From: a bacterium
GTDB taxonomy: Bacteria; UBA8248
Direction of reading: 5' to 3'
Assembly: GCA_965204535.1 (NCBI GenBank)
Contig: CBDBEV010000001.1
Location: 1,568,001-1,632,000 of the forward strand
DNA: 64,000 nt
Part shown: in pieces, positions 6,289 to 24,836 of the stretch
Layout of the letters: every line of letters starts with the position of its first letter
How positions within the stretch are numbered: the first letter of the stretch is position 1
Notes under the pieces: model-generated
The model's input: the letters and a program-made list of their open reading frames with translations, nothing else
Told to the model about the DNA's origin: nothing
The model's database searches: none
Translations under genes and position numbers: made by a program

Positions 6289-6657
6289 CTTTCGAGTACC
6301 CTCCCTATCTCACTGACCCGGCAGGAACTCTATGCATGAAAACCATATTTTGTCTTGAACAATGAAAACAATTATAGCATATCCGCGACGGAATCAACAT
6401 TCTGAAATCGCGTCCGGAACGGGCGTTCAGGAATTCCCGCCTCTCACGCCCGTGTCAGCCGCCCCTCGACTGCCGCCGGACTTCCACCTGCTGCACGGAC
6501 ACCGGTTCGCCCGGCGCACACCCCATCGATTACCGGCCGGGTTGGGCGTCAAGTGCGGTGGGACCGATCGCGACGAGGGCTTTGTCTCCGTTGTCCGGGA
6601 CAGGCGCGGTCCGGTCGTCGAATCCAGGAGAATCAATCAGGCCGGCGCCGAAGCGGT

Positions 6658-7798: not shown

Positions 7799-7889
7799 GG
7801 TGACCCCCTCCATGTAAAGTCGTCGCAGGATTCCCCGGGCAATCGTACGCGGCACGGACACGGGCCAGGCGGAGAAGTCCCTCGCCGGA

Positions 7890-8140
7890 AGTTTTCCATG
7901 GGCGGCGCGAAACTTCACCGCTTGCCCGCGCATGCGATGCAGCGCAGGACCGCTTGTTGCTCCTCGCTCCTGAGCGCAACCGCCTTCACGCCGGGCTGCC
8001 GCACCGCCGTCCGGACCGCGCGCGCGTCGTGCGCATCGTTCCCGTTGCCACCCGTGAAGGGTCTGATCATCTTCGCCGCAGGAAGCCCGGCCTCGTTCCC
8101 CGGTTCCCGCAGCCGCCGCACGCCTCCATCGAGACCACGC
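7890..8140 (-). mobile_element. IS110-family transposase remnant
   Basis: RPFTGGNGNDAHDARAV...ALRSEEQQAVL, then ALHRMRGQAVKFR after a frameshift; matches the IS110 KPF..NKND..DA..I / KSEEQQA.L.LHR.R pattern. Confidence 0.7.
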
Positions 8141-8392
8141 GTGGCGTGCGATTGACAAAATACTCCAGGAACTCTAGTCCCTTCCCGGACTGGAATCAAG
8201 GGTTTTTCAACAGCCTCGCATGCGGCGGCCGACACTGCGAACGTTGCGGATCCAGGCCGGCCGGGTCGGGTCGCCGCCCAGCTTTCGGCGGTGGCGGAAT
8301 TGTGTTATTTTTTTCTTTTTTCGCCGAAATCGCTTGCCGTCCGAACGGCGGAAAGAAGAGAACACGAGCACCTGAAAAAGGAGGGCCCGAAC

Positions 8393-8479
8393 ATGCGACC
8401 CACTCCTGGAAAGAGCACGCCGGGGCTTGATCATCGGCTACAGTCCGTCATCCGTCATCCGAAGAAGAGGGCGGCATGA
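8393..8479 (+). CDS. Putative leader peptide MRPTPGKSTPGLDHRLQSVIRHPKKRAA
   Basis: AAGGAGGG RBS before ATG 8393; contains 2 GTCATCC units; TGA overlaps the next ATG (ATGA at 8476-8479). Confidence 0.5.
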   Translation: MRPTPGKSTPGLDHRLQSVIRHPKKRAA

Positions 8480-10461
8480 AGTGCGCCCGGCAAAGGGCCG
8501 GCGCGCAACGACCGGCTTCACCGACTCCGGCAGGCGCCTGCCGTCCTGGCCTGCGCCCCCGGTGCTTCCGCGCCCGCTTCTCCCTTCTTCCCGCCCTCGC
8601 GCTGCTGCTCGGCGTGCTCGTTTCACCTCACGCGGCAATGGCGGACGAGAAGGCAGAGAAGCCACGGGACACGCGGCACGAACAAACGGGCACGAACGGC
8701 GCTGACGACCTGATGGGCGGCGCCGGCGACGATTTGCTCGTCGGCAGGAGAGGCAACGACTACTTGCGCGGGAAGGGGGGCGACGACGAGTTGCGCGGCG
8801 GCCGGGGCAACGACCTGCTTCGGGGCGGTGCCGGCGACGACCTGCTGCGCGGCGGCCGCGGCAACGACGTGTTGCGCGGCGGCGTCGGCAACGACGTGCT
8901 GCACGGCGGGGACGGCGAGGACCGCTTCGCGTTCGCGACCGGGGCTTCGGGCCACAAGATCATCGCCGACTTCGAGGCCGGCGACGTGATCGCGCTGGGC
9001 GCGGACCCGGAGGGCGGCTCCTGGCCCGCGGTTGCCGACATCGTGGCCGGCGTGGCGGCGCGGGACGGCCGCTACACGTACACCCTGCGCCCCGGCCTGA
9101 CGGTGGAGACGGACACGCCGCTCGGGGCCGGGGATTTTATGTTCCTTGCCCACGCCGTGGCGCTGCCCGACCGCCATACCCTGGCCGGCTGGCTGACCGA
9201 CAATCCGGACGGGAGCATGACGGTGCCCGCGGGCGAACACCGCGACGGGGGCGGCGTGCGCTTTGCCTGCCCCGCGGACGGCGCCGACTGCAGGTTGACC
9301 GTGACGGCGGCGGGCGGGGCCGTGACCGTCTCCTCGACCGGCGGCGCGGCCACGGCGGGACCCGAGCCGGCGGCGAGCGCCAGGCTGGCCGGCAAGCCGC
9401 CGCCCCCGCCGCCTGCGCAAACGGCGCCCTCGACGCCGACGGGCGCCACGGCGCACGGGGTCGCCGGCGCCATCGTCAGCCTCGGGGACGATGCGCTCAC
9501 GGACCCCTTCGTCAGCTGGCCCGTCGCGGACCGTCCGCTCACGCTCGGGGTCCCGTACCACGTGCTGCCGCTCTCCCTGCACAAGCTGAGCAAGGGCATC
9601 CTCGGCGGAGAGCTCGACAACGACGACGACCCGTCCACCCCCACCGGCTTCGCCGCGGCGGACGCCCCTCCGGCGATCTCCGGATGGTCCGGCAGCGCCC
9701 GGGAGTGGCGCCGCACCGACGGGGCCGGCGTCACGACCGTCGACACCGTGACCCTCTACGCGAAGGCGGGCTCCGGGGAGACGTATCTCACCTTCGGGTG
9801 GTGGGCGCGGGTTCCCGATTCAGGCACAGCCGGCGCCGGGACGTTCGGGAACGACCCGACCCACCACAGCATCCACAAGACCAGGAGGAATCCCCTGTCG
9901 CTCAACGCCGCTTGGCCGCGCGGCGCCAACGCCTTCGCCGCGGGCCGGCACCATTACTGGCCCGGCTGGGCGCAGCTCGACGCCCTCGCCGGCACCGCGA
10001 CCTACGCCGGAGCCGCCGCCGGCCTGTACTCGGAGCGCGCGGCGGGCGCGCGCGACGGCGCCTCCGGCGCGTTCACGGCGGACGCCGCCCTGACGGCGGA
10101 TTTCGACGCGAAGTATGTCCGGCTCTCGGGCCGCATCACAGGCTTCCGGGACGCTTCGGGCGCCTCGCTCGGCGACTGGACGGCGAGGCTCGCCAACGAC
10201 ACCGGCGGCCTGACCGGGGGCGGTTTCAACGGTGGCGGTTTCGCGGTCAGCGGCAACACCGCCGGCGCCGCCGACGGGCGCGGCTGGAGCGGCGGATGGG
10301 TCGCCCAGTTCTTCCGCCGCTCGGCCGCGGATCCCCAGGCGGCGCATCCCGCCGCGGTGGGCGGGGCGTTCCAGGCGCACCACGGCACGCCTGCGATGGC
10401 GGCGTCGGACGATGCGGGCTTCGTCGGCGTGATCGGCGCCTTCGGGGCTGAGAAGCGGTAG
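8476..10461 (+). CDS. Secreted protein with RTX Ca-binding repeats and TbpB-like C-terminal barrel
   Basis: Signal peptide ending PHAAMA; tandem GGxGxDxLx nonapeptides; YLTFGWW, GTATYAGAAAGLY, GAFTADAALTADF; terminal GAFGAEKR. Confidence 0.8.
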   Translation: MKCARQRAGAQRPASPTPAGACRPGLRPRCFRARFSLLPALALLLGVLVSPHAAMADEKAEKPRDTRHEQTGTNGADDLMGGAGDDLLVGRRGNDYLRGKGGDDELRGGRGNDLLRGGAGDDLLRGGRGNDVLRGGVGNDVLHGGDGEDRFAFATGASGHKIIADFEAGDVIALGADPEGGSWPAVADIVAGVAARDGRYTYTLRPGLTVETDTPLGAGDFMFLAHAVALPDRHTLAGWLTDNPDGSMTVPAGEHRDGGGVRFACPADGADCRLTVTAAGGAVTVSSTGGAATAGPEPAASARLAGKPPPPPPAQTAPSTPTGATAHGVAGAIVSLGDDALTDPFVSWPVADRPLTLGVPYHVLPLSLHKLSKGILGGELDNDDDPSTPTGFAAADAPPAISGWSGSAREWRRTDGAGVTTVDTVTLYAKAGSGETYLTFGWWARVPDSGTAGAGTFGNDPTHHSIHKTRRNPLSLNAAWPRGANAFAAGRHHYWPGWAQLDALAGTATYAGAAAGLYSERAAGARDGASGAFTADAALTADFDAKYVRLSGRITGFRDASGASLGDWTARLANDTGGLTGGGFNGGGFAVSGNTAGAADGRGWSGGWVAQFFRRSAADPQAAHPAAVGGAFQAHHGTPAMAASDDAGFVGVIGAFGAEKR

Positions 10462-10711: not shown

Positions 10712-11330
10712 TCAGCGGTTGAGGACCTGCTTCCAGTTATTTCGCAGCGGCCTTGGCCAGACGTCCTTTCCGGGCTTGTCGTATTGTCTGTCCCTGTCGT
10801 AGCGCCTTCGTCCCCGTGTGGTTCCAACGTGAATCCATCCCGATGCCCTGTAGAAGGCGCCGGTGCAGCGCGGCGTCTCGACGAAGGTCTCGACGAGGAC
10901 GGGGATCGTGCCATAGCGCTCGGTCCAGTCTCCGGGCAGGCGCCTGCGGATGATGGCGAGGAGGTGGGAGCCGGGATTGGGGATCCTGATCCATGGCAGG
11001 ATGAGGAACCTCGGGTTGTCGACCACGAGGGGGAGGTCCTTCTCGCGCAACTGCGGCGTCCAGCCGATGAAGCCGTCGCGCGGGGCGAGTTTCCATGCGG
11101 CGCTGCTGCAGCCGGGCATGGCGAGGGGCCTGCCGCCGGGGTAGTGGTAGCGGGCGACGAACTCGTTCCACAGCCTGCCCTCGCGGGTTCCGCGCACGAC
11201 GACGCGCATATCGGGGGGCGGACCTCATCGAGGGTCCCGGGCGCCGGGATGAGGGGAGCTTCGGTGTCGGGTCCGGATACGAATCCGCCCGATATTCGCC
11301 ATACTTCTCCCGCCAGGGACCGCCCGGCGG
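10712..11330 (-). pseudogene. DUF4338/DruA-like IS-associated gene, degraded
   Basis: LWNEFVARYHY, AAWKLAPRDGFIGW, RFLILPW, PVLVETFVE...YRASGWIHVGTT motifs; internal segment and N-terminus appear missing. Confidence 0.7.
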
Positions 11331-11360
11331 ACGTGCCGGGCGAGCTCCTGGAGGAAACCG

Positions 11361-13016
11361 CTACTCCTCCTGCCGGTTCGCGCCGAACGCGCCGACCATG
11401 AGGCCATCATTCCCGTACGTCGAATGGAACACTCCGCCCACGACCTTCGGAACGCCGTCGTCGCCGTTGTCCATAAGATGACCGTTCCACCCGCCGTCGC
11501 CGGCGGCGGCCGTCCCGTCGATGGTCCACACCGTCTGCGCATACTCTGAACGGATGAAACTGATCGCTATGTCGCCTGTATTCGTGATGGAGGACTCCTT
11601 CAGCTCGACGGACCAGTTCCGCGCCCGGCCGTCCGCGCCCGTGAAGTCGTTTATGGCGCCCGAGATCATGTCGGTGTGGAAATCGGCCTCTAACGTCGCC
11701 GTCGCGGTGAAGCGGCCGGCGTCGTTCGTCCCCCCGGTGGGGCTCGAGAGAGCGTACAGGCCGGCGGCGCCGCCCCTGTACGTCGCCGTGCCGCGCAGGG
11801 CCGCGATGGTGGCCCCGGTGTCCGGGAGATCACGCTTCAGAAATAATGAGTACGCGGTATAGGTGTCGTCCGCGGACTTGTGGAGCCACCAGCCGTAGGA
11901 GGCATACTCCGTATCCGGCGAACTCATGACCCGGGCGTCCGGGTCCGCGGGCTTGAACGTCCAAACCGCATTGGCGGCGTCGAACGCGCCGGCGGCGGTG
12001 ACTCCGCCGAGATTGAAGCCCGGCCCGGCATGGCTGGCCGCGCACGTGCTTCCGTCAGCGGGATCGCAGCTGTACGTGCCCGGCACCCCGTGATAGCTGC
12101 CGGGGATCATCACGGCGACGTTGTTCTCGGGCAGCTTGAACCTCTTCAACCCCGCCGTATGGTCGAAGCTCGGGCTGGCAACCCGGCCGGCGGTGCCCTC
12201 GGTGGTCGTTTCGTCCAGCGTTCCGCCGGCGAAGCTGGCGCTGTACTGCGTCGAAAACTTCTCGCCCTCCTTCGGCTCCTCGACGTTCGAGTAGAAGACC
12301 GCCTCGTGTGTGCCACCACCTTCGGGCGCGGCCGTGTACCTCTTGCCTTCCCAGCCGTGGTTGGCGGCAACCATCGTCTGCTTGTCTTCCGACAGATAGT
12401 ATCTCGCAATTCCGAAATTCAGCGTTAAGCCGTCCGTTTCGAGGTCGGGATAGGTGCATCTTGGGTCAGATTCAAAGCAGGTTGATGGTGGAAGCAAAGG
12501 ATCATCGCCGAAGCCGTCGTACAGCTTCCTGGCGGTTTCGATCATGTCCGCCCTTGCCGCGTCGGCCGCCGCCTGCATCGCCGTCATGCGGGCCGTCCTG
12601 GCATTGTGGAAACGGGTCTCGAGCGCGGTGACGGTTCCGGTGTTCGCGGCCTTCTCCTCCGCCGGAACGCCGGCCGCCGCCGCTATCGCCGCCTTCGCCG
12701 CCGCGACCGCCGCCTCCGCGGCGCTCACCTCGGCGTCGGTGGAGTCGTCGTCCACCTCGCCTACCGCCGCCTGGGCGGCATCGAGCTTCATTTTGATGTC
12801 CGCGCGCTCCATGGCCAGGAGCTCCGCCGCCGTGACGCAAGCTCCGTCCATGTACCTGCCGCCACCGGCTTCACATGCCGCTTGCGGGTCCGGCATCTCG
12901 GCCGGCGTTTGCGCAGTGCCGCCGCCCCCGCCGCAGCCCGCCAGCGCAATCGTGAACGCCCCCGCCAGCGCGAAGGCGTAAAGCCTGTTTATCGGTTTCT
13001 CATATTTGAACGTCAT
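11361..13016 (-). CDS. Surface lipoprotein with Ala-rich stalk and TbpB-like barrel (paralog B)
   Basis: LAG-CGGG lipobox; YASYGWW, GTATYRGGAAGLY, MVGAFGANRQ. Confidence 0.8.
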   Translation of the reverse strand: MTFKYEKPINRLYAFALAGAFTIALAGCGGGGGTAQTPAEMPDPQAACEAGGGRYMDGACVTAAELLAMERADIKMKLDAAQAAVGEVDDDSTDAEVSAAEAAVAAAKAAIAAAAGVPAEEKAANTGTVTALETRFHNARTARMTAMQAAADAARADMIETARKLYDGFGDDPLLPPSTCFESDPRCTYPDLETDGLTLNFGIARYYLSEDKQTMVAANHGWEGKRYTAAPEGGGTHEAVFYSNVEEPKEGEKFSTQYSASFAGGTLDETTTEGTAGRVASPSFDHTAGLKRFKLPENNVAVMIPGSYHGVPGTYSCDPADGSTCAASHAGPGFNLGGVTAAGAFDAANAVWTFKPADPDARVMSSPDTEYASYGWWLHKSADDTYTAYSLFLKRDLPDTGATIAALRGTATYRGGAAGLYALSSPTGGTNDAGRFTATATLEADFHTDMISGAINDFTGADGRARNWSVELKESSITNTGDIAISFIRSEYAQTVWTIDGTAAAGDGGWNGHLMDNGDDGVPKVVGGVFHSTYGNDGLMVGAFGANRQEE

Positions 13017-13138
13017 TAAGCGAGTCTCCTGAATACATGGAAAGGAACTTGACCTGGCCAATTCGATTGGAGAAGGGCCGACACCCCTCAAAGGGCTGCT
13101 TTAAGGGGGTTGAAAAACCCCTGAAGATGGGAATTGCT

Positions 13139-13303
13139 GCGACACGATCCCCGAGGTGCAGGCCGAGTCGGGGTGTCGGCTACGTTCATGAAACGCGAAG
13201 TGGGGGCCGCCCGTTGTTCCCCCTCCCGGCTCGAGGACTCAAACTCACAACCGGGAGCGGTACAGTTTGCTCTCACGAGGGAAGCAACCAACGGGCAACC
13301 CCC
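13139..13303 (-). promoter_or_regulatory. Candidate structured RNA leader between the paralogous lipoprotein genes
   Basis: Nested stems GGGGGUUGCCCGUUG/CAACGGGCGGCCCCC and CUCCCGGUU/AGCCGGGAG, whose G-U pairs work only on the minus strand; second hairpin at 13139-13178. Confidence 0.4.
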
Positions 13304-13384
13304 TTTTTCGCTCTCCTCATATCGCCTTGGGCCCCGCCGGGGCGGTGAAGCCCCGGAAGCCTGAAGGCGTCGTGCTCTTCGCTG

Positions 13385-15007
13385 CTACTGCTTGTTCACG
13401 CCGAAGGCGCCGACCATCCGGCCGGACGTGCTGTACGTCGAATGGAACGTGCCGGTCCCGACCTTCGCAACGCCGTCGTCGCCGTTGTCATAGAGAGCTC
13501 CGGACCACGCGCCGGCGGCGGCCGCGGCCGTCCCGTCGATCGTCCAGACCGTCTCGTTTCCGGCAGCGGCGGCAGTACCGTCACTACTGATTGCCCCGTC
13601 ATCGCCGACGGTGGACTTCTTCAACTCGACGGACCAGTTCCGCGACTGACCATCCGCGCCCATGAACTGGTCGATCGTGCCCGTGATCATGTCGGCATTG
13701 AAATCGGCTTCGAGCGTCGCCCGCGCGGTGAAGTGGCCGGCGTCGTTCGTTCCCCCGGTGGAACTGTAGAGAGCGTACTTGCCGGCGGCGCCGCCCATGT
13801 AGGTCGCCGTTCCACGCAGGGCCGTGATGCCGCTGGCGGGCGGGACGGTACCCCTGGCCGTCGCGAAAGCGCTCGCGGTGAAGGTCTCGCCGTCCTCGGA
13901 CTTGTGGATCCACCAGCCGTAGGAGACATACACCGTGTCCGCCACATCCGAGACCATGGCCGTCGGGCTGGTGGGCTTGAACGTCCAGGTCCCGCCGGCG
14001 AGGGTGAAGCCGCTTGTGGCTACGGTAGCGGAGCACGTGTTTCGATCAGCAGCAGCATCTGTAGGGGTGCAACTGTAAGTGCCGGACACCCCGTGATAGC
14101 TGCCAGGGATCATCACGGCGACGTTGTTCGCCGGCAAATCGAAGGTCTTGGTTCCTGCGGACTGGTCGAAGCTCGGGCTGGCAACGCGGCCCGTAACATA
14201 GCCAGTGAGGGCAGTGATATCCCCTGTTTCGCCGTCGGTGAGTGTGTACGCTTCATTGAACGGGTCGCCCTCCGTCGCGTCGCCGACGTTCGAGTAGACA
14301 TACGCCTCGTACGTGCCGGCATCGCCCGTGGGCTCGGCCGTGTGCCTCTTGCCCTCCCAGCCGTGGTTGGCGGCGACCGTCGTATCCTTGTCTACCGCCA
14401 GTGGGACGGTTGCGGCCGTGCCGATCGTCACGCTGATGACGCCGGCGGCGTCACTTGCGCCGGTTCGGACGTTGTCGGTATCGCCAAGGCCGTGCTCGAG
14501 GCCCTTGTATAGCTTACTGGCCGTCGCCATCATGGCCGCATCCGCGGCCTTCTGCTCATCGTCCATGGCGGCCATGCGGGCCATCTTGGCGGCGGCAAGC
14601 TGGGTTTCCAGCGCGGTGACCGTTCCGGTGTTCGCGGTTTTCTCTTCGTCCGGAATATTGGCCGCGGCCGCTATCGCCGCCTTCGCCGCCGCTATCGCCG
14701 CATCGGCCGCGCTCACCTCGGCGTCGGTGGAGTCGTCGTCAACCTCGTTGACCGCGGTGGTTGCCGCCATGATGGCCGTGCTGATGGCCGAGCGCTGCTC
14801 TGCCGCGAGATCCGCGGCCGAGGTGCAAGTGCCGTCCGCATTGTACCGACCCCCCTCATCCTCGCACGCCATTTGCGGGTCAGGCATATCGGTCGGCGTT
14901 TGCGTAGTGCTGCCGCCCCCGCCGCCGCAGCCGGCCAGCGCGACGGCGAACACGGCCGCCAGCGCGAAAGCGTAAAGCTTGTTTATCGGTTTCTCTTTGA
15001 ACATCAT
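13385..15007 (-). CDS. Surface lipoprotein with Ala-rich stalk and TbpB-like barrel (paralog A)
   Basis: LAG-CGGG lipobox; many blocks near-identical to 11361..13016; ends MVGAFGVNKQ. Confidence 0.8.
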   Translation of the reverse strand: MMFKEKPINKLYAFALAAVFAVALAGCGGGGGSTTQTPTDMPDPQMACEDEGGRYNADGTCTSAADLAAEQRSAISTAIMAATTAVNEVDDDSTDAEVSAADAAIAAAKAAIAAAANIPDEEKTANTGTVTALETQLAAAKMARMAAMDDEQKAADAAMMATASKLYKGLEHGLGDTDNVRTGASDAAGVISVTIGTAATVPLAVDKDTTVAANHGWEGKRHTAEPTGDAGTYEAYVYSNVGDATEGDPFNEAYTLTDGETGDITALTGYVTGRVASPSFDQSAGTKTFDLPANNVAVMIPGSYHGVSGTYSCTPTDAAADRNTCSATVATSGFTLAGGTWTFKPTSPTAMVSDVADTVYVSYGWWIHKSEDGETFTASAFATARGTVPPASGITALRGTATYMGGAAGKYALYSSTGGTNDAGHFTARATLEADFNADMITGTIDQFMGADGQSRNWSVELKKSTVGDDGAISSDGTAAAAGNETVWTIDGTAAAAAGAWSGALYDNGDDGVAKVGTGTFHSTYSTSGRMVGAFGVNKQ

Positions 15008-15263
15008 TTAGTGAGTCCTCCTGAATACACAGTAGAAAAAGGGATTTTCCGTGAATTTCCGGCTTTCTCCGATTAACCTCCTTTCGTCAGCTTTTTTTCG
15101 GGCCTTCACAAACTGGTGATTCGTACTTTCGGCCGCCTGAAATACGGCGGACTTGAACCCTTTCATGATCCGGGCCGGTGGTTCGGCGAGACACATGTTC
15201 CTGCGGCATGCGCCCACCGTTCCCGGCCTCCAGAGGCGAGCCGCCTGCCACCCGGCCTGCCCG

Positions 15264-15451
15264 CCGATAATCGTTATTATCAGATGTGAGAAGCCCCGTT
15301 TTCCGCCGGGAGAGGCGTTTCGGGGCGCATCCGGGCCGTAAATGAGCGGGAAAAGACGCAAAACGGCGCCCGAAACCACTCCGGGGACCCCGGAATTGCG
15401 CTTGACATGGCCTTGAGAGGTGTTATATTTTCTGATAATAACGATTATCGG
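15264..15451. promoter_or_regulatory. Putative invertible promoter 1 (21-bp perfect inverted repeats around a 146-bp segment)
   Basis: CCGATAATCGTTATTATCAGA at 15264-15284 and its exact reverse complement at 15431-15451; TTGACA(15402)-N16-TATATT(15424) with TG extension, pointing +. Confidence 0.85.
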
Positions 15452-15529
15452 ATGTTAATTGTTGTAAAGATGTGGTAAAAAAACCGTTTCCGGCGGGCGA
15501 TTCTTCGTCGTCCGCCTTATATATGTTGC

Positions 15530-16564
15530 ATGGAATCGGGACGGCAACTCCACGAACGTGAATCGCCGCCGGAACTTCAGGGCGCCGGCCGAACGACAGA
15601 TCACGGAGAACCATGGGCGAAACCCGCGGCGCCGGGGAGACGCTCCCCCCTGGAAAAACCCGACGAGAGTCACTCACCGCACCTCGGTTCGTTCCGGGCG
15701 TCGGCTGATCTGGTGCGCGCCTCGATCGCCGGGAACACGCGCCGCGCCTACGAGGCGGCGCTGCGCGGTTTCGAGGAATCGGGGTGCCCCGAGACCGACG
15801 CCGGGGTGGCGGCCTACCTCACGGGGCTCTACGGGAAGGGCCGCTCGGCGGCCTGCGCCTCGATGGCGGTCGCGGCGCTTCGGTTCCGGGCGAGGCTGGG
15901 CGGCCGCTCCTCCCCGGTGGGTCCTTCGGCGCTGCGCGCCCTGGCGGGCTTCAGGCGTCTGGGTTCGGAGCGGGGCCGCGGCCCGGTGGACGGGGTGCGC
16001 TGGGAGGAGGCGGACCTCGCGGCGGCGCTGGCCGAGGGGACGGGGACCCTGGGGGGCCTGCGCGACGCGGCGGTCGTGGCAGTGGCGAGCGACGCCCTGC
16101 TCCGGGTGTCGGAGGTCGCGGCTCTGGACGTCGCCGACGTGAACCTCGGGGAGCAGACGGTGCGGATCCGCCGCTCGAAGACGGACCAGGAGGGTGTGGG
16201 CGTCGTACAGTACCTCGGAGAACCGACCGTGGCGCGCGTCGGGGCCTGGCTGGCGCGCGCGGGTATCGGGGAGGGAGCGCTCTTCCGGGGCCTGTACAAG
16301 GGGGGACGGCTTCGGCCCGGGCGCCTGACGGACAGGAGCATCCGGAGCATCATCGCGCGGTGGGGGAAGGCCGCGGGCGCCGAGGGGCGCGTGAGCGGCC
16401 ACAGCCTCCGGGTGGGGGGCGCGCAGAGCCTGGCCACGGCGGGGGCGTCGCTGGTCGAGATGCAACTCGCCGGGCGCTGGCAGTCGCCGGCCATGCCGGG
16501 ACGCTACGCGCAGGGACAGATCGCGAAACAGGGCGCCGTGGCGAGGCTGCGATACGGCCTGTGA
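15530..16564 (+). CDS. Cre-like tyrosine recombinase 1
   Basis: NTRRAY N-domain; catalytic LLRVSE (R), SKTDQ (K), HSLR, GRW, RYA (Y); start codon uncertain. Confidence 0.92.
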   Translation: MESGRQLHERESPPELQGAGRTTDHGEPWAKPAAPGRRSPLEKPDESHSPHLGSFRASADLVRASIAGNTRRAYEAALRGFEESGCPETDAGVAAYLTGLYGKGRSAACASMAVAALRFRARLGGRSSPVGPSALRALAGFRRLGSERGRGPVDGVRWEEADLAAALAEGTGTLGGLRDAAVVAVASDALLRVSEVAALDVADVNLGEQTVRIRRSKTDQEGVGVVQYLGEPTVARVGAWLARAGIGEGALFRGLYKGGRLRPGRLTDRSIRSIIARWGKAAGAEGRVSGHSLRVGGAQSLATAGASLVEMQLAGRWQSPAMPGRYAQGQIAKQGAVARLRYGL

Positions 16565-16593
16565 GGTCCGTCCGTTTTCTCCCGAATATCTCT

Positions 16594-17277
16594 CTACCGC
16601 CTCTTCCTCCTCCGGGCGGAGGCCCACTTCTCGAGGTCTTCGAGCAGGTAGCGCACCCGGTATCCGATGCGAAGAAAATCCGGCCCCTCTCCGCTCACGC
16701 GGTAGCGCTCCAGCGTCTTGGGCGAGAGGCCGAGCCAGGCGGCCGCCTCCCGCGTGTTCAGGTGGTTCTCCTTCGCGCGCTCATCGGCGTCTCCCGCGGC
16801 CCCGGGTTCCCCGGCGGCGTCCCACGTCCCGTCGAACGGGTCGGGCAAGTCCGCGAGCCTCTCGCGTATGGCGCGGATCTCCTCTCCCGTCGCGTTGGCC
16901 GCCATCCAGGCGCGCACCCGGTCGAAGGTCTTGAGATACGGCGAGGCGCCCCGGCGCAGCCTCCCCACGAAGGAGGGATTCCCCACGGTCTCCTCGCCCA
17001 GGATCGAGACCTTGGTCCCGCTCACCACGAGAAACGCCTCCACCTCGGCCCGCAGGAGCGGTCCCAGCGGCGGATACCCCATGAACGCGAGCACCCGGTC
17101 CGCCGTGTCGACCCGCAGGGGCCGCCCCCGGGCCTGCAGGCCCACGAAGCCGGGAACCCCCAGCGCGCCCACCCCGAAGCGCCTCGCGCTCATCCCTCGG
17201 CGCGCGCGCCAGAGCGCAATGCTCCGGCGCAGCCGCTCGTCCAGCGGGGCGCCGGTATCGTCTTTAAACGCGGTCAT
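16594..17277 (-). CDS. Multi-HTH DNA-binding protein with C-terminal excisionase/AlpA-like HTH
   Basis: Two similar small Cro-like units (...FVG.L..G.....TxDRV.A.M) plus HLNTREAAAWLGLSPKTLERYR..GEGPDF.RIGYRVRY. Confidence 0.75.
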   Translation of the reverse strand: MTAFKDDTGAPLDERLRRSIALWRARRGMSARRFGVGALGVPGFVGLQARGRPLRVDTADRVLAFMGYPPLGPLLRAEVEAFLVVSGTKVSILGEETVGNPSFVGRLRRGASPYLKTFDRVRAWMAANATGEEIRAIRERLADLPDPFDGTWDAAGEPGAAGDADERAKENHLNTREAAAWLGLSPKTLERYRVSGEGPDFLRIGYRVRYLLEDLEKWASARRRKRR

Positions 17278-17477
17278 GGCGCGCGAACATAAGGAAAGGA
17301 CGAGCGCCCGTTCAATCGTTGTTTCTAGCGCGGAAGGTACACCCGGGAAGAGTCCGCGCCTGCGTTCGTGCGCGGACCGCTCATCGGTTCAGCCTGAAAT
17401 CACGGGCGTTTTCCAGAAAACGAAGGTCGCCGGAGAACGTGCAGCGGGGCGCTACGGAAAAAAAGGAACAATGTCGC

Positions 17478-17650
17478 TCACACCGCGGCGCCCTGTTTCA
17501 CGAGTCGCCCCTGCGCATGACCGGCGATTGGCGGCGCCCGGCGAGTTGCATCCCGACCGGAGAAGCCCCTGCCGCGGCAAGGCGCTGCGCGCTGCCCGTC
17601 CGCAGGTCGAAACGGCGCCGATTCCCTTGTTTCATTCGTTTTTATCGGAT
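17478..17650 (-). pseudogene. Remnant of a third recombinase module (C-terminus plus possible degenerate site)
   Basis: Minus strand reads LRTGSAQRLAAAGASPVGMQLAGRRQSP...AQGRLVKQGAAV, homologous to the recombinase C-termini; TCCGATAAAAACGAAT resembles the right IR. Confidence 0.65.
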
Positions 17651-17812
17651 CGTATGCTGATGTTCCGGGTCGTCCGCCAAATACAATACGGCCAAGCCGA
17701 AACTGGCGGACATTCCTTCGTGGATTGTATGCCAACGGCCCGGATTTTCCCGGTCCTGTCTGATTGACCGTTTTGCCTTACACGTCTTTCGATGATTGGT
17801 CGGGCATGGTGG

Positions 17813-18865
17813 TCACGCCGGTATTGCCGTCAGATCGGACAATTCGCCTTTCTCGAAGGTTTTGGGAGCCCACCCCGGCAAGAAGGGCGTATCCATGCGG
17901 TCGAGTTGCAAGGCGTCGCGCATCCCCTGGGGGATGCTGTCAAGCCATTCGGGTATACCCGGCAGGGGCGATGAATCGGGGTCGTAGTAGAGACCGCCCA
18001 TTTCGGGCATTCCGGTGTCAGGCCAATGGCCCTCGTCGCGCTTGAGCAGTTGCACCGGCCAGGGTTCCCTGCGGGTTTCCACCAGGAATATCTCGTCCGG
18101 CGCATTTGTGCACGCTGAGAGCAGCGAAGGGAGAAGATCTTCGCGGAATTCGAAGCTCGTAAGGCCCGGATCACCGCTTTCCAAAACCAGAACGGTACGT
18201 GCGCCATCCGCCTTGCAGGCCTGAAGCTTGGGGCATTTCCTGGAAAAGGCATCCCGGAGACTGTCCAAGCGCGGGCCTTCCATATCGTCCGGAGGAATGA
18301 ATCTGAACGAGAGTGAGCCTGGCTTTTTTTGCACGAACCGTGCAATCGGCCATTGCAGCAGTTCGAATTCACAGTCAAATCCCGGCGGGGTTCCATGAAT
18401 ACGATCATCGGACCAATAAGGATTGCGGATTGATAAGATTTGGCCGGAGCTCCGCTCGCGCAGGGATTTCTCGCTCGCGCGGATCCATTCGACGAGATCA
18501 CCAAGTGCCCGTTCTCTTTTTTTGACTCGGCCTTTGGGCAGGGAAACGTCAATCGGAAATTGCAGTTCGTAGTAGGCCGGGCTTGAGAATGGATCCGGGA
18601 TAGCTTTTCTGATGTGCTCGATGATTTGGTTCGCGACGACCACGATCGATGTCTGATTTTCGATCGACTCGATCCAAGTGTGCTCAATCACATATTCCCG
18701 GGAGCCGAGCTTCAGACGCAGATCGACAGGAGGACCGCCTCTCTCCTTGCCCGGATGGCGGACATCCGAGCGCGTCTCGCGTGTCCATTTTTCGAGGATC
18801 CTGACGACCGCGTCACACACCCTGCCCTCGTTGTTCGGCACGATCATGGCCGACGAATCCCTCAT
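17813..18865 (-). CDS. Hypothetical protein, possible PD-(D/E)xK-like fold
   Basis: 350-aa ORF with natural composition; PVDLRL...YVIEHT near the N-terminus. Confidence 0.55.
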   Translation of the reverse strand: MRDSSAMIVPNNEGRVCDAVVRILEKWTRETRSDVRHPGKERGGPPVDLRLKLGSREYVIEHTWIESIENQTSIVVVANQIIEHIRKAIPDPFSSPAYYELQFPIDVSLPKGRVKKRERALGDLVEWIRASEKSLRERSSGQILSIRNPYWSDDRIHGTPPGFDCEFELLQWPIARFVQKKPGSLSFRFIPPDDMEGPRLDSLRDAFSRKCPKLQACKADGARTVLVLESGDPGLTSFEFREDLLPSLLSACTNAPDEIFLVETRREPWPVQLLKRDEGHWPDTGMPEMGGLYYDPDSSPLPGIPEWLDSIPQGMRDALQLDRMDTPFLPGWAPKTFEKGELSDLTAIPA

Positions 18866-19574: not shown

Positions 19575-21863
19575 TCATTTCCTGCGGTCGAGAGCCATCA
19601 GCAGAGGCGGAAGAAGGAGAAAGTCGGTGAGGAGTCCGAAGATGATCGTGATCGAGACCATGAGGCCGAGCGTCCAACTGCCCTCGTAACCCGATAAGGT
19701 GAACACCAGGAAGCCCGCCGACAGAACCACGGTCGTTGTCCAGAGCGCATTTCCAACGGTCTGGAAAGTGGCGCGCACGGCCTCGGGCGCGGAAAGCCCC
19801 TCGCGGCGGCTTTTCAGGTATTTGCTCAAAAAGTGAATCGTGTCGTCCACGATGATTCCGAAAGCGATGACGGTCATCACGGAGCCGGCAAGACTCACGT
19901 GGCTTACCAGATAACCCCACAGGCCGAAGGTCATGGCGGCGGGGATGAAGTTGGGCACGAGGCTGATGAGGCCCAGGCGCACGTTTTTGAAAACCAGGAT
20001 CAGAATCAATGAAATCAGGGTCATGCCGATGAACGTTCCGCGCAGCATGCTTTCCATGTTTCGTTGCGTGAGATGAGCGAAAATCATGCTTAAACCCGAT
20101 GCTTCGGCCGCGAATTCGGGTATGTTGGCGCGCAGCCAGGCCTGCGCACGCATATCGAGATTACGCAAGCCTCGAGCCGAGACCCCCTGGACCGTTACGG
20201 TCATTCGTGTTGCGGATTTCGCGACGTCGATGCGGTCGTTGAGGTCGGCGCCGAACGGAAGGGAAAACTCGTAAAGCAGCAGATATTGCGCGGCGAGCCT
20301 GGGGTTCTCAGGCAAACGATGGAAAGCCGGATCGTCACCGTGCATGTTCTTGTTCAGGCGCTTCATGATATTCGTGAAGGCCCGGACGTGGGTGACTTCG
20401 GGCTGTTTTCGGTACCAATCGGCGAAGGCCTCGACTTTTTTCAAGTATTCAGGGTCGGTAATGCCGCCCTCGCGCCCCGCTTTCAGCGAGTATTCCAGCG
20501 AATTGAGACCGGTCAGGTTCTTGATGACGAAATCCGTGTCGCGCCGGAACCGGTATCGCTCATCGAACTGTTTCGTCCAATCCTCGCTCAGTTCGTTTCG
20601 GGGGATGCCGGTGAGCAAAGCAATCGTCAAAATGGAGACGAACGAGAGCAGAAACGCGCGGCGTTCGACGACGAATGCGCCGAAGCGATCGAAAAAGCCG
20701 GACCCCTCATTGCGGCGGCGAGGCGCGCGCAGAGGCAGGATCGAGAGCAACGCAGGCAGAAGCGTCATGGAGTAGAAGAAGACGCACAAAACCCCGAACG
20801 CCACCAGATTGCCCAGTTCCTGAAAGGGCGGTGAATCCGAGGTGTTCAGGCTCAAGAACCCGATTGCGGTCGTTAGCGAGGTGAGAAAAACCGGCCAGAT
20901 GTTGCTGCGAAGCGATTCCATAATCGCCGCGTTCCTGTCCAGACCTTTTCGCATGGCCAGAAGAGTGGCCGAGACGATGTGGATCGAATGGGCAACGGCG
21001 ATCACCATGACGATGATCGGGAGGCCGGCGGTGATGGGGCTGAACACCAGGCCTGCCCACCCGGTGAATCCCATGGTGGTGTTGATGGAGAATATGATCA
21101 CGAAAACGATGGCCAGGGTGCCGAGTACGGAGCGAAGCAGAAGGGCCGTACCGATTATGACGACGAAAAATGCGATGGGCCCGATGTTCTCCATGGTACC
21201 CGCGGTAGCATCGGCGACGGTGCGGTTCAAGACGATGTTGCCGGTCAGGTAGTATTCAAAGTCGGGACGACTCGTGCGGGCCTTGCCCAGAAGGGCGTTC
21301 AGATAATCGGTTATCTCAACTGCCACATGTTCTTTTTTTTCGGGCAAGACGAATGTGATCGCCAACCCACTCACGCGCCCGTCCCGGGAGATCAGACGCC
21401 CGACGAGGTCTGCGGAGTTCAGCGCAGTCTTCCTGATTCTCGCGAGGTCGGCGTCACCGAGCGCGCTCGCGTCATCGACGAGCGGCTCGACGATCAAGTC
21501 ATCTCCCTCCGCCCAACTGTGGTTATAGTTCGTGAGAGAGTCGACCCGGCTCGAATGAGGCGTCTTCCAGGCGGCTTCGGTCAACTCCTCCATGGCGCCG
21601 AGCGCCCTGCGGGTGAACACCGAGCCCTCCCGGGGCGCAATGGCGATGAGCGCGGTATCGGACTTGGAATAGGTATTCTGCAAGGTATCGAAAGCGGCGA
21701 GTTGGGGATTGTCTTCGCCCAACAAAATACGATAATCATCCGAGACGGTGATGTAGCGCGCTCCCGCCGTCATAAGCGCCATGAGCAGAGAAACCAACCC
21801 GACGACCAGCCAACGGCGGCGCAGAACAAGGTCTGAATAGTGATCCACCTGCAAGAGATTCAT
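19575..21863 (-). CDS. MMPL/RND family transporter
   Basis: Two repeats of periplasmic loop plus TM bundle; SLTTAIGFLSL, GIIVDDTIHF motifs. Confidence 0.9.
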   Translation of the reverse strand: MNLLQVDHYSDLVLRRRWLVVGLVSLLMALMTAGARYITVSDDYRILLGEDNPQLAAFDTLQNTYSKSDTALIAIAPREGSVFTRRALGAMEELTEAAWKTPHSSRVDSLTNYNHSWAEGDDLIVEPLVDDASALGDADLARIRKTALNSADLVGRLISRDGRVSGLAITFVLPEKKEHVAVEITDYLNALLGKARTSRPDFEYYLTGNIVLNRTVADATAGTMENIGPIAFFVVIIGTALLLRSVLGTLAIVFVIIFSINTTMGFTGWAGLVFSPITAGLPIIVMVIAVAHSIHIVSATLLAMRKGLDRNAAIMESLRSNIWPVFLTSLTTAIGFLSLNTSDSPPFQELGNLVAFGVLCVFFYSMTLLPALLSILPLRAPRRRNEGSGFFDRFGAFVVERRAFLLSFVSILTIALLTGIPRNELSEDWTKQFDERYRFRRDTDFVIKNLTGLNSLEYSLKAGREGGITDPEYLKKVEAFADWYRKQPEVTHVRAFTNIMKRLNKNMHGDDPAFHRLPENPRLAAQYLLLYEFSLPFGADLNDRIDVAKSATRMTVTVQGVSARGLRNLDMRAQAWLRANIPEFAAEASGLSMIFAHLTQRNMESMLRGTFIGMTLISLILILVFKNVRLGLISLVPNFIPAAMTFGLWGYLVSHVSLAGSVMTVIAFGIIVDDTIHFLSKYLKSRREGLSAPEAVRATFQTVGNALWTTTVVLSAGFLVFTLSGYEGSWTLGLMVSITIIFGLLTDFLLLPPLLMALDRRK

Positions 21864-21967
21864 CGCCTCAGTGAGAAAGGCCGGGGATCGCTCCGCGTTG
21901 TACAACTCAAGCGCAAAGCAGTTGATTCACCTGGTGTATGCAATTCAAATCACGTCACAGGGATCGT

Positions 21968-23149
21968 TCACCATGGACTGGATTGCGAAGCGCGAACGTG
22001 ATCGGGCATCCTGTAGCTGATGCCTCCCCTGTCGTATTGCGCGGCGTCGAAAATCTGGGAGAACGCGTTTTGCCGGAAGAGCGCATTGCCACTCAGCATC
22101 TCGAAAAGGCGTTCCCTGAACCGGTAATAGCCCAGCACCAGGGTTCTGCTCCTCAGGGTTTTCGGATACTGGTAGGTGTCGGCGAGTTCGTTGCCTATGA
22201 GCGCTCGCGAGAGGCGGTAGGCGTACTTTTCCAGAGATTTGATTTGGGCTTCATCCGTCAGGCCCGACATTATCAGAATGGCCTTGAATACCGTATTCGC
22301 CACGGCCAGACAATCGGAGTCAGGCGGCGGTTCGCACATGGAAGCGACCTCGCGAAGGTCTCTGGCCTCTTGCTCGCTGGTGAACAGTATGGTTTCGGGA
22401 ACTCCAAGTAGATAGCCGGCGTAGCGCCAGATACTGACGATGCTCTCCTTTTCCTCCTGCGTGAGCCTGCCGCCCAGCGAAATCGCGTGTTCGAACTGGC
22501 GAATCGAGAAGGTGTACAGGGAAACCCCGCCTATGTGGGCCGCGCTCAGCGGCAACCCCCAGGCTTCGTGATCCCACTCGTCGGAATTCTTCAGCAGATG
22601 CCTGATCCGGGCATGGACGAAGCGGATGCGCATGGATATCTTCCATCCGTCGCCCTCTCTGCCCAGGCCGCCGGGAAAATATATCTCGACCATGTGGCGG
22701 TTGTTTTGCCGGAGGCGTCTGATGGCGCCGTCATCCAGTCCGGTCACGCGTCCGGTGATGAAGAAGGATTTGGCGACGAGCGTCCCGAAGCCTTCCACCG
22801 CGCTGCCGACGGCGTATGCGATGAGCATGTTGGTCATGTTTCTGTAGAAGGCGCGCATGCCCGGCCCGAAGGCCTCGAAGTCGACCCAGGGGGGCACGTC
22901 GGGATCGACTTTCTCGAAGAAATCGCGCAGGACTTTCGGCGCATCGCGCAGAACACCTTCATGCTGTTCTATGCCGGCCTCGATGAACGCGTGCAGATCA
23001 TAGGAAGGTAAAGAGGCAAGCTCCTCCATGACCGGGTCCAGGTCGGCATCGCCTATGGTGGTGTGCCGGATGTAGTTGTCCGCCGCCGCCTCATCGTGGA
23101 GGCGGGCTTCGGCGTAACCTTCGGTATACGCTGATGGACACTTCTCCAT
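21968..23149 (-). CDS. MpaB/DUF2236 (rubber-oxygenase-like) family oxygenase
   Basis: PPWVDF, TGR, RIRFVHARIR..L, WDHEAWGLPLS, WRYAGYLLGVPE. Confidence 0.8.
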   Translation of the reverse strand: MEKCPSAYTEGYAEARLHDEAAADNYIRHTTIGDADLDPVMEELASLPSYDLHAFIEAGIEQHEGVLRDAPKVLRDFFEKVDPDVPPWVDFEAFGPGMRAFYRNMTNMLIAYAVGSAVEGFGTLVAKSFFITGRVTGLDDGAIRRLRQNNRHMVEIYFPGGLGREGDGWKISMRIRFVHARIRHLLKNSDEWDHEAWGLPLSAAHIGGVSLYTFSIRQFEHAISLGGRLTQEEKESIVSIWRYAGYLLGVPETILFTSEQEARDLREVASMCEPPPDSDCLAVANTVFKAILIMSGLTDEAQIKSLEKYAYRLSRALIGNELADTYQYPKTLRSRTLVLGYYRFRERLFEMLSGNALFRQNAFSQIFDAAQYDRGGISYRMPDHVRASQSSPW

Positions 23150-23178
23150 ATCAGTATCCTCGCAATAGTTTCCGGCGG

Positions 23179-23484
23179 CTAAACCTCCGGTTGACCCACA
23201 GGAGCGTCCGCGGAACTCTCTTCAACCTTCATGCCGGCTGAAGACACTCCATGGTCAGGACCTGGCCGCCTGTCATCGTTTCTAGGGCCGCCGGAACATG
23301 CCGTTCTCTCGATGGCGGGAAACCGAATCCGCTTGTTTGCCAATTCGGGGTTACCCGCAAACCCTCTGGCCTCCTCTTTCATGTGCCTGATCGCCTTATC
23401 CAGCAAGTTCAAATGTTGAACCCGCCGCCGGCACCTCCATGCCACGATGACGGCCACAACCAGGAGTACGGCGATGTAAGTCAT
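23179..23484 (-). CDS. Small hypothetical membrane-anchored protein
   Basis: N-terminal hydrophobic helix; AAGGA RBS; first gene next to invertible promoter 2. Confidence 0.5.
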   Translation of the reverse strand: MTYIAVLLVVAVIVAWRCRRRVQHLNLLDKAIRHMKEEARGFAGNPELANKRIRFPAIERTACSGGPRNDDRRPGPDHGVSSAGMKVEESSADAPVGQPEV

Positions 23485-23540
23485 GACTTGTTTCCTTGGT
23501 CCGTCTCCAAAGGCGAGCCGCCTCGCATCCGGCCTGCCCG

Positions 23541-23739
23541 CCGCTAATTGTTATTATCGGATGTGAGAAGCCCCGTTCTCCGCCGGGAGAAGCGTTTCGG
23601 GGCGCATATGGGCCGTAAATGAGCGAAACATGAGCGAAAAAAGACGCAAAACGGCGCCCGAAACCCCTCCGGGGACCCCGGAATCGCGCTTGACATGGCC
23701 TTGAGAGGTGTTATGTTTTCCGATAATAACAATTAGCGG
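23541..23739. promoter_or_regulatory. Putative invertible promoter 2 (21-bp perfect inverted repeats around a 157-bp segment)
   Basis: CCGCTAATTGTTATTATCGGA at 23541-23561 and its exact reverse complement at 23719-23739; TTGACA(23690)-N16-TATGTT(23712). Confidence 0.85.
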
Positions 23740-23855
23740 ATTCCAAAAACCCGCCGTTTCGCCGGTATTCCCCTGCGAAACGGCTTTTTTTATTGGAAAT
23801 TCCCCGCCGTCGTCTATACTCGGCAATCGACGAGGCCCTGGAGCGGCCTCAGGGA

Positions 23856-24836
23856 ATGGAAACGGCCGCCGACCCGGAAGGTTGGCTTCTCGCCATGACG
23901 ACTGGGGCAACACCGCCCGACCCGGAACAGGACATCGCTTTGACGAGAAGGCCGGCCCGACCGGCCCGTGCGGCCGCCGACCTGGCGAAGGCGTCGATGT
24001 CTAAGAACACGCGGCGAGTGTACGAGACGGCCCTGCGGAGGTTCGAGCGCTCGGGAAACCCCGAGACCGACGCCGGGATAGCGGCGTACCTGGGGGATCT
24101 CTACGAACAGGGGCACTCGGCGGCCGTGGCCGCGATGGCGGTCGCGGCGCTTCGCTTCCGGGCGAAGCTGAACGGCCGGCCCTCCCCGGCGGGGGCGGCC
24201 TCGGAGCGGGTGCTGGCCGGCTTCAGGCGCCTGGCCGCAGAGCGCGGCCGCGGCCAGGTGGTGGGGGTGCGCTGGGAGCAGGCGGACCGCGCGGCGGCGC
24301 TGGCCGAGGGGACGGGGACCCTGGGGGGCCTGCGCGACGCGGCGATCGTGGCGGTGGCGAGCGACGCCCTGCTCCGGGTGTCGGAGGTCGAGGCGCTCGA
24401 CATCGAGGACGTGGACCTGAAGGAGCAGACGGTGCTGATCCGCCGCTCGAAGACGGACCAGGAGGGTGTGGGCGTCGTGCAGTACCTCGGAGAACCGACC
24501 GTGGCGCGCGTCGGGGCCTGGCTGGCGCGCGCGAGTATCGAGGAGGGAGCGCTCTTCCGGGGCCTGTACAAGGGGGGACGGCTTCGGCCCGGGCGCCTGA
24601 CGGACAGGAGCATCCGGAGCATCATCGCGCGGTGGGGGAAGGCCGCGGGCGCCGAGGGGCGCGTGAGCGGCCACAGCCTCCGGGTGGGGGGCGCGCAGAG
24701 CCTGGCCTCGGCGGGGGCGTCGCTGGTCGAGATGCAACTCGCCGGGCGCTGGCAGTCGCCGGCCATGCCGGGACGCTACGCGCAGGGACAGATCGCGAAA
24801 CAGGGCGCCGTGGCGAGGCTGCGATACGGCCTGTGA
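23856..24836 (+). CDS. Cre-like tyrosine recombinase 2
   Basis: Same catalytic motifs as recombinase 1; C-terminal half nearly identical to it. Confidence 0.92.
   Translation: METAADPEGWLLAMTTGATPPDPEQDIALTRRPARPARAAADLAKASMSKNTRRVYETALRRFERSGNPETDAGIAAYLGDLYEQGHSAAVAAMAVAALRFRAKLNGRPSPAGAASERVLAGFRRLAAERGRGQVVGVRWEQADRAAALAEGTGTLGGLRDAAIVAVASDALLRVSEVEALDIEDVDLKEQTVLIRRSKTDQEGVGVVQYLGEPTVARVGAWLARASIEEGALFRGLYKGGRLRPGRLTDRSIRSIIARWGKAAGAEGRVSGHSLRVGGAQSLASAGASLVEMQLAGRWQSPAMPGRYAQGQIAKQGAVARLRYGL

Follow-up and report, generated by a model that had tools for sequence, protein, structure and literature searches.

What does a promoter enclosed by perfect inverted repeats do when it lies between a surface-lipoprotein gene and a divergent gene for a Cre-type recombinase, and which of the two does it serve? 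The question is raised by a locus in the 64,000-nt stretch of bacterial DNA analysed here as the window (G000:C2:1568001-1632000, where G000 denotes the genome carrying the studied locus). A first-pass annotation made from the sequence alone had described 21-bp inverted repeats around TTGACA-N16-TATATT between a lipoprotein gene and a Cre-type recombinase, and our repeat and promoter scans confirm this layout. It had overlooked that the locus is one of 17 copies, a second of which lies at 23541-23739 of the same window. We consider it very likely that the promoter segment inverts within this family. The full model, in which a 174-bp promoter segment is flipped by the Cre-type recombinase, the recombinase is insulated from that promoter and the result is OFF-biased phase variation, is probable. 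At the level of sequence, the evidence consists of the sites and their matched cores, the two orientations seen among sister loci and, across two runs, at a single sister, and the intact catalytic set of the enzyme.

The repeats at the studied locus are 100% complementary over 21 nt and spaced 146 nt apart. Perfect 21-nt inverted pairs spaced 60-400 nt apart number six in the window, two of them switches and four GC-rich dispersed repeats, and none was found in 30 order-1 resamples of the window. The enclosed promoter scores 11/12 against the sigma-70 consensus, points at the recombinase gene about 100 nt away, and is the sole sigma-70-like site called on either strand of 11000-18000. The anatomy of the sites was taken from a sequence-de-duplicated set of 57 distinct complete loci, of which G000 contributes 16 and its relatives 41. 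The set leaves out the G000 locus split by the end of contig C1, six pattern failures (L011, L072, L022, L013, L129 and L047), records without a segment match, and duplicates; L011, L072 and L022 also had matched cores. The parsing script required TTGACA, and under that condition the promoter columns are conserved over the 57 loci. Each site consists of a 7-bp arm, a 6-bp core and a second 7-bp arm, and this covariation-based reading replaces the 4-bp asymmetric core proposed earlier, hence the turning segment of 174 bp.

Within a locus the two cores are reverse-complementary in 56 of 57 cases, with 23 different cores represented, as against a mean of 3.2 and a maximum of 13 matches when cores were paired at random in 100,000 shuffles (loci taken as independent draws); at the variable arm positions, within-locus agreement is at chance level. 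Core matching of this kind would be expected if the two cores had to be identical for strand exchange, as described for RecV and Cre (PMC12282940; here and below, cited papers are represented by the parts of their text that were accessible). At one orthologous position both cores differ between G000 and its relative G002, where switch and enzyme are 90% identical and the cargo is also different. A core unique to each switch was considered and rejected, three cores being common to pairs of loci in G000. Consensus-perfect arms are unevenly distributed in the 51 loci whose cargo is OFF: 3 at the cargo outer position, 16 at the inner distal, 50 at the inner proximal and 41 at the recombinase outer position. 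The studied locus is an exception, with all four arms matching the consensus, and would be among the more active ones.

Judged by their sequences, the sites appear to work like lox sites but are not classed as canonical lox, since they are not 13-8-13 palindromes. By a definition of 11-15-bp palindromic arms around 8 bp with at most two asymmetries, the two sites as assembled carry 5 and 4 asymmetries in 11 bp, and the only site of the studied locus to pass is the recombinase-side site in its in-silico ON form (2 asymmetries). Family-wide, 4 and 5 of 57 pass in the OFF state and 1 and 14 of 57 in the ON state.

Relative to homologous flanks, the promoter faces the cargo (ON) in six of the 57 loci, two of them in G000, leaving 51 OFF. 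The sister locus C2:567k has flanks 89-92% identical to those of the studied locus around a reversed 188-nt core, and L035 and L037, on one record, share flanks 89-95% identical around a reversed 208-nt core. On a tree of inner segments with rough bootstrap, six changes are required to account for the six ON rows, and starred branches force three or more of these. The family in this way shows the hallmarks of an inverton: a short segment with inverted repeats, a promoter inside it, and both orientations between like flanks.

Comparison of both orientations with sequencing-run contigs revealed a flip at C2:567k between runs X1 and X5 but none at the studied locus. C2:567k is found in both states across runs, ON in X1 and in the assembly and OFF in X5. 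In X1, which may be the source of the assembly, a 142-nt contig (searched at 96% likeness) crosses the ON junction with 0 mismatches, 37 and 85 letters beside the site, and a depth of 19.6. In X5, from another study and with another host label, the promoter end is joined to the recombinase flank (joint 7371/7523, opposite strand, 51 letters on the short side); the contig is identical to C2:567k at 328 of 329 letters, and its lone change lies outside the 10 positions at which the sister differs from the studied locus, two of which are in the core. An X2 joint at C2:567k was not counted, its contig being nearer the allele of the studied locus (5 vs 11 differences). At the studied locus itself (90% likeness), OFF pieces were recovered from X1, X2 and X3; the one from X2 alone extends over 31 letters to either side. 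An opposite-strand joint in X1 was considered as proof of inversion at the studied locus and rejected, as it comes from the same run and has the same depth, 19.6, as the ON contig of C2:567k.

The recombinase matches Pfam Phage_integrase, and its closest solved relative is Cre (E 1.8e-13, residues 89-340 aligned). All six R-K-H-R-W-Y catalytic columns are filled (Table 1), and the protein is of the Cre type as delimited in PMC10250229, a 300-400-aa homologue over both domains with the full catalytic set. It scores far under the FimB/FimE-type and Xer cut-offs, with 19.7 bits vs 222 and 13.5 vs 221 for the FimB/FimE/MrpI-type family. The 17 switches of the genome include eight with a full open recombinase gene, two with a truncated one and seven with none, so that nine are without an intact local enzyme. 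The eight full-length open paralogues retain the catalytic motifs, and the other seven are 75-96% identical to the studied enzyme over the aligned part. Loci in the ON state include L114, L120 and C2:2391k, where the enzyme is absent or truncated, which suggests action in trans, as in ipuS, Tsr19 and RecV. A short out-of-frame open reading frame (ORF, 15613-15709) inside the 5' region of the recombinase gene has GGAG before its ATG and stops just ahead of an in-frame GTG; the true translation start of the recombinase is uncertain.

On the other side of the switch there is lipoprotein cargo, as the earlier annotation held, but what it called an array comprises only two genes. The first cargo protein carries the lipobox LAGC at residues 24-27 of its translation and has no Pfam match. 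Its C-terminal 375 residues were modelled from 10 sequences (paralogues) with a mean pLDDT of 55, a low confidence, and ranks 1-13 against this model are hemophilin/HphA, TbpB, fHbp, NHBA and HpuA, all surface lipoproteins or haemophores of that fold (Z 11.2-14.5; hemophilin/HphA, Z 14.5, rmsd 3.9, 206 aligned). A single-sequence fold (pLDDT 45) did not resolve the barrel, and a search of solved structures with the cargo alignment gave 0 matches. Atlas neighbours of the cargo carry TbpB_B_D in 11-94% of members, and the genome holds a Slam gene (PF04575, 104 bits, over the Pfam cut-off; C2:795287-796156). The cargo models as a predicted Slam-type surface lipoprotein of the HphA/TbpB type, a fold that gives no ligand. 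No promoter was called in the cargo leader at any of the 57 loci, and the two cargo genes are probably co-transcribed over the 368-nt gap between them, since neither a promoter nor a terminator was called there. Among the cargo genes listed for other switches, most encode paralogous lipoproteins and a few encode other secreted proteins. A cadherin-like autotransporter and an RTX-repeat protein are encoded near the studied switch (2646-10461), and relatives of both are cargo elsewhere.

An excess of OFF loci could come from selection, and the terminators and promoters flanking the switches were examined for this reason; in Bacteroides invertons, too, 92 of 96 cases are mainly OFF (PMC8748976). 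A hairpin of -8 kcal/mol or lower followed by at least five T was sought within 80 nt outside the recombinase-side site, and it is present at 27 of 37 recombinase-bearing loci and 7 of the 20 others; the count on the cargo side is 0 of 57. Behind the hairpin and outside the switch, 16 of 26 full-length recombinase loci have a separate xTGGAA-16-TATA(C/T)T motif, which occurs in a decayed CATACT form at 7 of 11 loci with a partial recombinase and at 0 of 26 with a full one (counts over related copies). The second switch of the window carries both the hairpin with T-run and the separate promoter motif.

In the model that we favour, a recombinase tetramer would bind the four 7-bp arms and exchange strands across the 6-bp cores, which would have to match. 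In the ON orientation the promoter would be directed at the predicted surface-lipoprotein genes; in the OFF orientation its transcript would likely end at the terminator-like hairpin before the recombinase gene, itself weakly expressed, on this view, from a fixed promoter that lies outside the switch. The eight paralogues would act as a common pool, from which the nine switches lacking an intact local enzyme would also be served. Because the predicted transcription start (~15436) falls inside an arm, bound enzyme would damp the promoter. Across the family, the cargo-side site in the OFF state joins two weak arms and the ON state gives each site one strong arm, an arrangement that would favour ON-to-OFF inversion. 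The outcome would be a slow and reversible phase variation of surface proteins with an OFF bias rather than a one-way latch.

Several observations weigh against this model. The studied locus has been seen in the OFF orientation only, in the assembly and in the run contigs, and the earlier proposal of an invertible promoter served by a Cre-type recombinase, with its cargo OFF as assembled, is supported by matched cores and flipped loci across the family and by Cre homology. No run among the contigs examined, which drop rare variants, held both orientations of one locus, and X5 may represent another strain, given its other host label, in which case the flip could be an old event. The 57 loci are related copies, and the shuffle overstates their independence; gene conversion is another way in which cores could come to match, the cores of one locus (L112) are mismatched, and cores are not unique, with 13 among the 16 complete G000 loci. 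The promoter and terminator calls are consensus matches, and the model of the cargo is one of low confidence. The studied locus lies outside the 27 with a hairpin and T-run, having a weaker TTATATAT tail on its hairpin, and no separate recombinase promoter scoring at least 9/12 was called in 11000-18000.

The last two points bear on how the studied recombinase is expressed. Its locus belongs to a subtype (5 of 26 full-length loci) that combines the weaker-tailed hairpin with a TATATA hexamer; at the studied locus the hexamer is accompanied by neither a -35 match nor a Shine-Dalgarno sequence. With a weak hairpin tail and no separate promoter call, some read-through from the OFF promoter into the gene is possible, and an own promoter of this recombinase is unproven. 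The claim that the promoter drives the recombinase as assembled has gained from the orientation of the promoter, the weak tail and the absence of any other promoter call of at least 9/12, but a hairpin intervenes and at 16 of 26 full-length loci in the family the enzyme has a promoter-like motif of its own. An extension of this idea, which we regard as rather unlikely, is a resolvase-derived switchboard of 17 cassettes and eight cross-reactive enzymes, in which the OFF promoter would leak through the hairpin at this subtype and the dose of enzyme would count the switches that are OFF.

A stronger version, proposed in the first-pass annotation, has the invertible promoter as the recombinase's only promoter, so that a flip to ON would activate the lipoproteins, silence the enzyme and lock the state. 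The promoter as assembled does face the recombinase about 100 nt away with no competitor called nearby, the hairpin tail is weak here and the hairpin is not called in the close relatives L002-L004, and the finding of one orientation per locus per run fits slow switching. A latch that removes the enzyme's only promoter should, however, lead loci to drift to ON, yet ON does not behave as an absorbing state, with 51 of 57 OFF. Selection against ON could mask a latch, but the hairpins with T-runs and the separate promoter motifs described above, the paralogues that could reverse the switch, the matched cores kept at nine of 17 switches without an intact local enzyme, and the occurrence of both the ON and the OFF state at a sister locus of the same flank type all count against it. 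The self-latching switch is not supported by these data, in view of the OFF majority, the hairpins, the separate motifs and the eight intact paralogues, and we judge it unlikely.

Inversion might also be a relic, with flips that took place in the past or during duplication, no switching at phase-variation rates now, and orientations that differ only between strains. The absence of any run with both orientations of one locus, the loss or breakage of the recombinase at several loci, and the short arms with 4-5 asymmetries in 11 bp as assembled would fit such a history. We nevertheless find it decidedly unlikely: cores have diverged from one locus to the next yet remain matched within 56 of 57, and they have done so also at one orthologous position of G000 and G002, eight enzymes are intact, and the flip at C2:567k separates alleles identical at 328 of 329 letters.

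We judge it highly improbable that the repeats are instead operators, or resolution or attachment sites of a mobile element of TnpS/rst or lox type at which inversion is incidental. In favour of this reading are the Cre-like enzyme (TnpS is described as related to Cre, and its site lies between divergent genes; PMC4337579), the mostly single sites with this arm consensus in distant relatives, the excisionase-like gene next to the recombinase, and the lack of one cassette at its orthologous position in G002. Against it, operators have no reason to keep variable cores paired, and the sites, which are inverted and internal, enclose a conserved promoter. The cassette compared with its empty site ends in dispersed GC-rich repeats rather than at the sites, the divergent gene encodes a lipoprotein rather than a TnpT-like helper, and no promoter was called in the cargo leader itself (0/57).

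The distant relatives also bear on the origin of the cassette: we infer that a resolvase module with a single site underwent inverted duplication around a promoter. In 56 distant Cre-like loci the arm-core-arm consensus was matched 31 times, compared with 7.9 by shuffle; the matches are mostly single, and a perfect one lies upstream of L073. Single near-perfect sites upstream of distant Cre-like genes at L073:3290-3309 (Panacagrimonas) and L075:3571-3590 (Bradyrhizobium) are candidate native targets. Paired exact repeats of at least 11 nt within 900 nt were detected at four close relatives (L033, L044, L047, L048) among 49 distant recombinase loci, with three unrelated-looking pairs and 42 loci without any, in a scan that misses imperfect pairs such as that of L049. 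L033, L048 and L049, outside the 57, are more diverged switches with matched cores and another inner sequence upstream of related recombinases. The cassette that is absent at the orthologous place in G002 is without an enzyme and has both ends in dispersed GC-rich repeats; recombination sites as cassette ends were rejected at this, the sole empty site examined. Four GC-rich palindromic dispersed repeats of the window (45088-45254, 46101-46233, 49148-49298 and 55490-55597), MITE- or REP-like, have 32-149 near-full copies in the genome, and repeats of this group also bound the cassette just described. No transposase was found among the 12 neighbour genes scanned, no genome-wide search having been made.

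Table 1. Features of the studied locus and of the second switch in the window, with positions given in the window.
Feature	Position	Strand	Remarks
Cargo lipoprotein 2, paralogue	11361..13016	-	551 aa from ATG at 13016; no own promoter called; co-transcription predicted
Conserved non-coding stretch behind cargo gene	13073..13385	.	about 310 nt; 15 places in genome, 13 within 6 kb of a switch
Cargo lipoprotein 1	13385..15007	-	540 aa; lipobox, helical stalk, C-terminal domain modelled as HphA/TbpB/fHbp-type handle + barrel
Cargo leader	15008..15263	-	256 nt; 17 matches in genome, 16 within 60 nt of a switch; no promoter called inside
Cargo-side recombination site	15264..15284	.	7-bp arm + 6-bp core TCGTTA (15271-15276) + 7-bp arm; both arms equal the family consensus
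Invertible segment	15271..15444	.	174 bp core to core; 146 bp between 21-bp repeats; OFF as assembled
Sigma-70-type promoter match	15402..15429	+	TTGACA-16-TATATT + extended-10 TG; predicted +1 ~15436, in inner arm of right site
Recombinase-side recombination site	15431..15451	.	core 15439-15444, reverse complement of left core
Terminator-like hairpin	15492..15516	+	10 pairs, -17 kcal/mol, TTATATAT tail; between switch and recombinase start
TATATA hexamer	15518..15529	+	+1 would be the A of ATG 15530; candidate weak leaderless recombinase promoter
Cre-type tyrosine recombinase	15530..16564	+	344 aa; R192 K217 H291 R294 W317 Y326
HTH_17 / excisionase-like gene	16594..17277	-	convergent on recombinase; at 7/17 switch loci
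Second switch in window	23541..23739	.	21-bp repeats, core TTGTTA, promoter 23690-23717, OFF
Hairpin and separate promoter match of second recombinase	23753..23820	+	hairpin with T-run 23753-23784 (-19.7 kcal/mol), then TTGGAA-16-TATACT 23793-23820
Second Cre-type recombinase	23856..24836	+	326 aa from this ATG; 85% identical to first over residues 65-344

Several sequences around the studied cassette recur with it. Upstream of the HTH gene, 17483-17606 is an inverted, degenerate copy of the recombinase 3' end (82% complementary to 16405-16496) that is found again at other cassettes. For the conserved stretch at 13073-13385, RNA structure was considered as an explanation and found no support, 0 of 70 and 1 of 62 pairs having changed on both sides in 11 copies; Rfam gave one match over 12900-17900 (E 0.3, below gathering). 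An NCBIfam 'invert_tail' match to the cargo signal peptide (15.8 bits vs a cut-off of 37) was disregarded. On its cargo side (19575-23540), the second switch retains 36 nt of cargo leader and faces a 101-aa ORF, an MpaB/Lcp-type oxygenase and an MMPL transporter, and it may have captured metabolic genes.

The inner segment has 17 copies in the genome, with both orientations represented, and was found in 11 of 22 genomes of the same genus, in neither of 2 further members of the family, and in 1 of 16 genomes at greater distance. A more distant genome, G032, holds the promoter part with a related recombinase (L013/L129), where the script found no sites, possibly as a transferred, locked copy. 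The 23 closest recombinase loci (L031-L053) are labelled as Nitrospinota (6), Thermodesulfobacteriota (1) and 'bacterium' (16), and run X4, the sole run examined with a readable label, is a sponge metagenome; on these labels the host is likely sponge-associated and Nitrospinota-related. Contig G000:C1 starts and ends within the core of one switch's cargo-side site (L131, L132) with a 4-nt overlap; joining the ends gives matched cores, and in G002 they lie next to each other. This break at the crossover may reflect mixed orientation in the reads. A lone site at L126:1248-1267 (G000:C2:561247) has the same core as the studied locus, is preceded by a cargo-leader remnant, and lies behind tandem 901-aa lipoprotein genes with identical N-termini; it is possibly a relic switch overwritten by a new cassette.

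The logic of an invertible promoter is known from the mrp, fim/ipu, Tsr19, mpl and RecV systems, from which the present family differs by its Cre-family enzyme in a dispersed, multi-copy cassette. In Proteus mirabilis, mrpI is divergent from the mrp operon. A 252-bp invertible promoter lies between this recombinase gene and the adhesin operon and is flipped both ways by MrpI (PMC9820224), and mrpI is on an independent transcript (PMC7444556). The studied locus resembles mrp in having an invertible promoter between a tyrosine recombinase gene and a surface-gene operon, but MrpI is FimB/FimE-like and acts at a single locus, whereas the enzyme here is a full-length Cre homologue in a 17-copy cassette. 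At fimS and ipuS of E. coli, recombinase paralogues act across several switches, with the bias in direction determined by half-site sequence (PMC6083910), features with predicted counterparts here; the enzymes there are of another subfamily, the repeats are 7-9 bp, and there are 3 switches rather than 17. The RecV switches of Clostridioides difficile combine degenerate arms with 6-bp cores, the two cores of a switch being identical, and a 'spacer code' was proposed for them (PMC12282940), and one RecV enzyme acts on several distant sites (PMC5903667). Several switches, 6-bp cores identical within each and degenerate arms are common to both systems; RecV, however, has no N-terminal binding domain and is encoded by a single distant gene, in contrast to the eight local Cre-type paralogues, non-unique cores and recently amplified cassette found here.

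In Bacteroides, the local tyrosine recombinase Tsr19/BF2766 flips local and distant surface-gene promoters with an OFF bias (PMC4747536), and IP-ARG invertons show invertase and promoter travelling together on mobile DNA (PMC8748976). The local recombinase, the surface-gene promoters and the OFF bias are shared, but there the switch is downstream of the invertase gene and has Bacteroidales promoter motifs, and here it is upstream of a divergent Cre-type gene and has a sigma-70 consensus. The mpl lipoprotein family of Mycoplasma penetrans is phase-varied by promoter inversions under one tyrosine recombinase (PMC3599477); inversion of lipoprotein promoters by an enzyme of this class, likely here, is the common feature, but a single recombinase acts there, whereas the present cassettes are dispersed, in many cases include a Cre-type gene, and have Slam-type cargo. 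To Cre/loxP and TnpS/rst the studied system is linked by protein homology, by the catalytic set (residues as in PMC10250229) and by palindromic sites within 1 kb of the gene, but those systems resolve dimers or cointegrates between direct sites, unlike the inverted sites with ~7-bp symmetric arms and the promoter flip seen here, and where the rst module has the TnpT helper (layout in PMC4337579) the divergent gene here encodes a lipoprotein with a barrel-domain model. In the literature consulted, Cre-family enzymes appear as resolvases. Our searches found no report of sponge-symbiont or Cre-type promoter switches, nor of a natural switch driving its own recombinase, most subscription papers being outside full-text search; the accessible text of PMC8138268, PMC8987985 and PMC11868660 has nothing on this layout, and the words 'sponge' and 'Nitrospin' are absent from the accessible main text of PMC11602134, whose GTDB-wide inverton tables could hold these loci.

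Invertible promoters are well studied in gut and pathogenic bacteria, and the present analysis adds a locus found ON in one run and OFF in another, together with evidence from terminators and promoters that speaks against a latch. The 57 loci, with 23 natural cores and graded arms, offer a ready test of the in silico 'spacer code' proposed for C. difficile, and the family is a source of a new Cre-type enzyme together with a panel of natural sites. Were the OFF promoters in fact to feed the recombinase pool, enzyme dose would fall as switches turn ON, a feedback that would limit or stabilise which adhesin-like lipoproteins the sponge symbiont displays. If the favoured model is true, an uncultured symbiont would phase-vary up to 17 surface-protein loci in combination by means of a Cre-type invertase, which would point to heterogeneity in host attachment or in immune or phage evasion.

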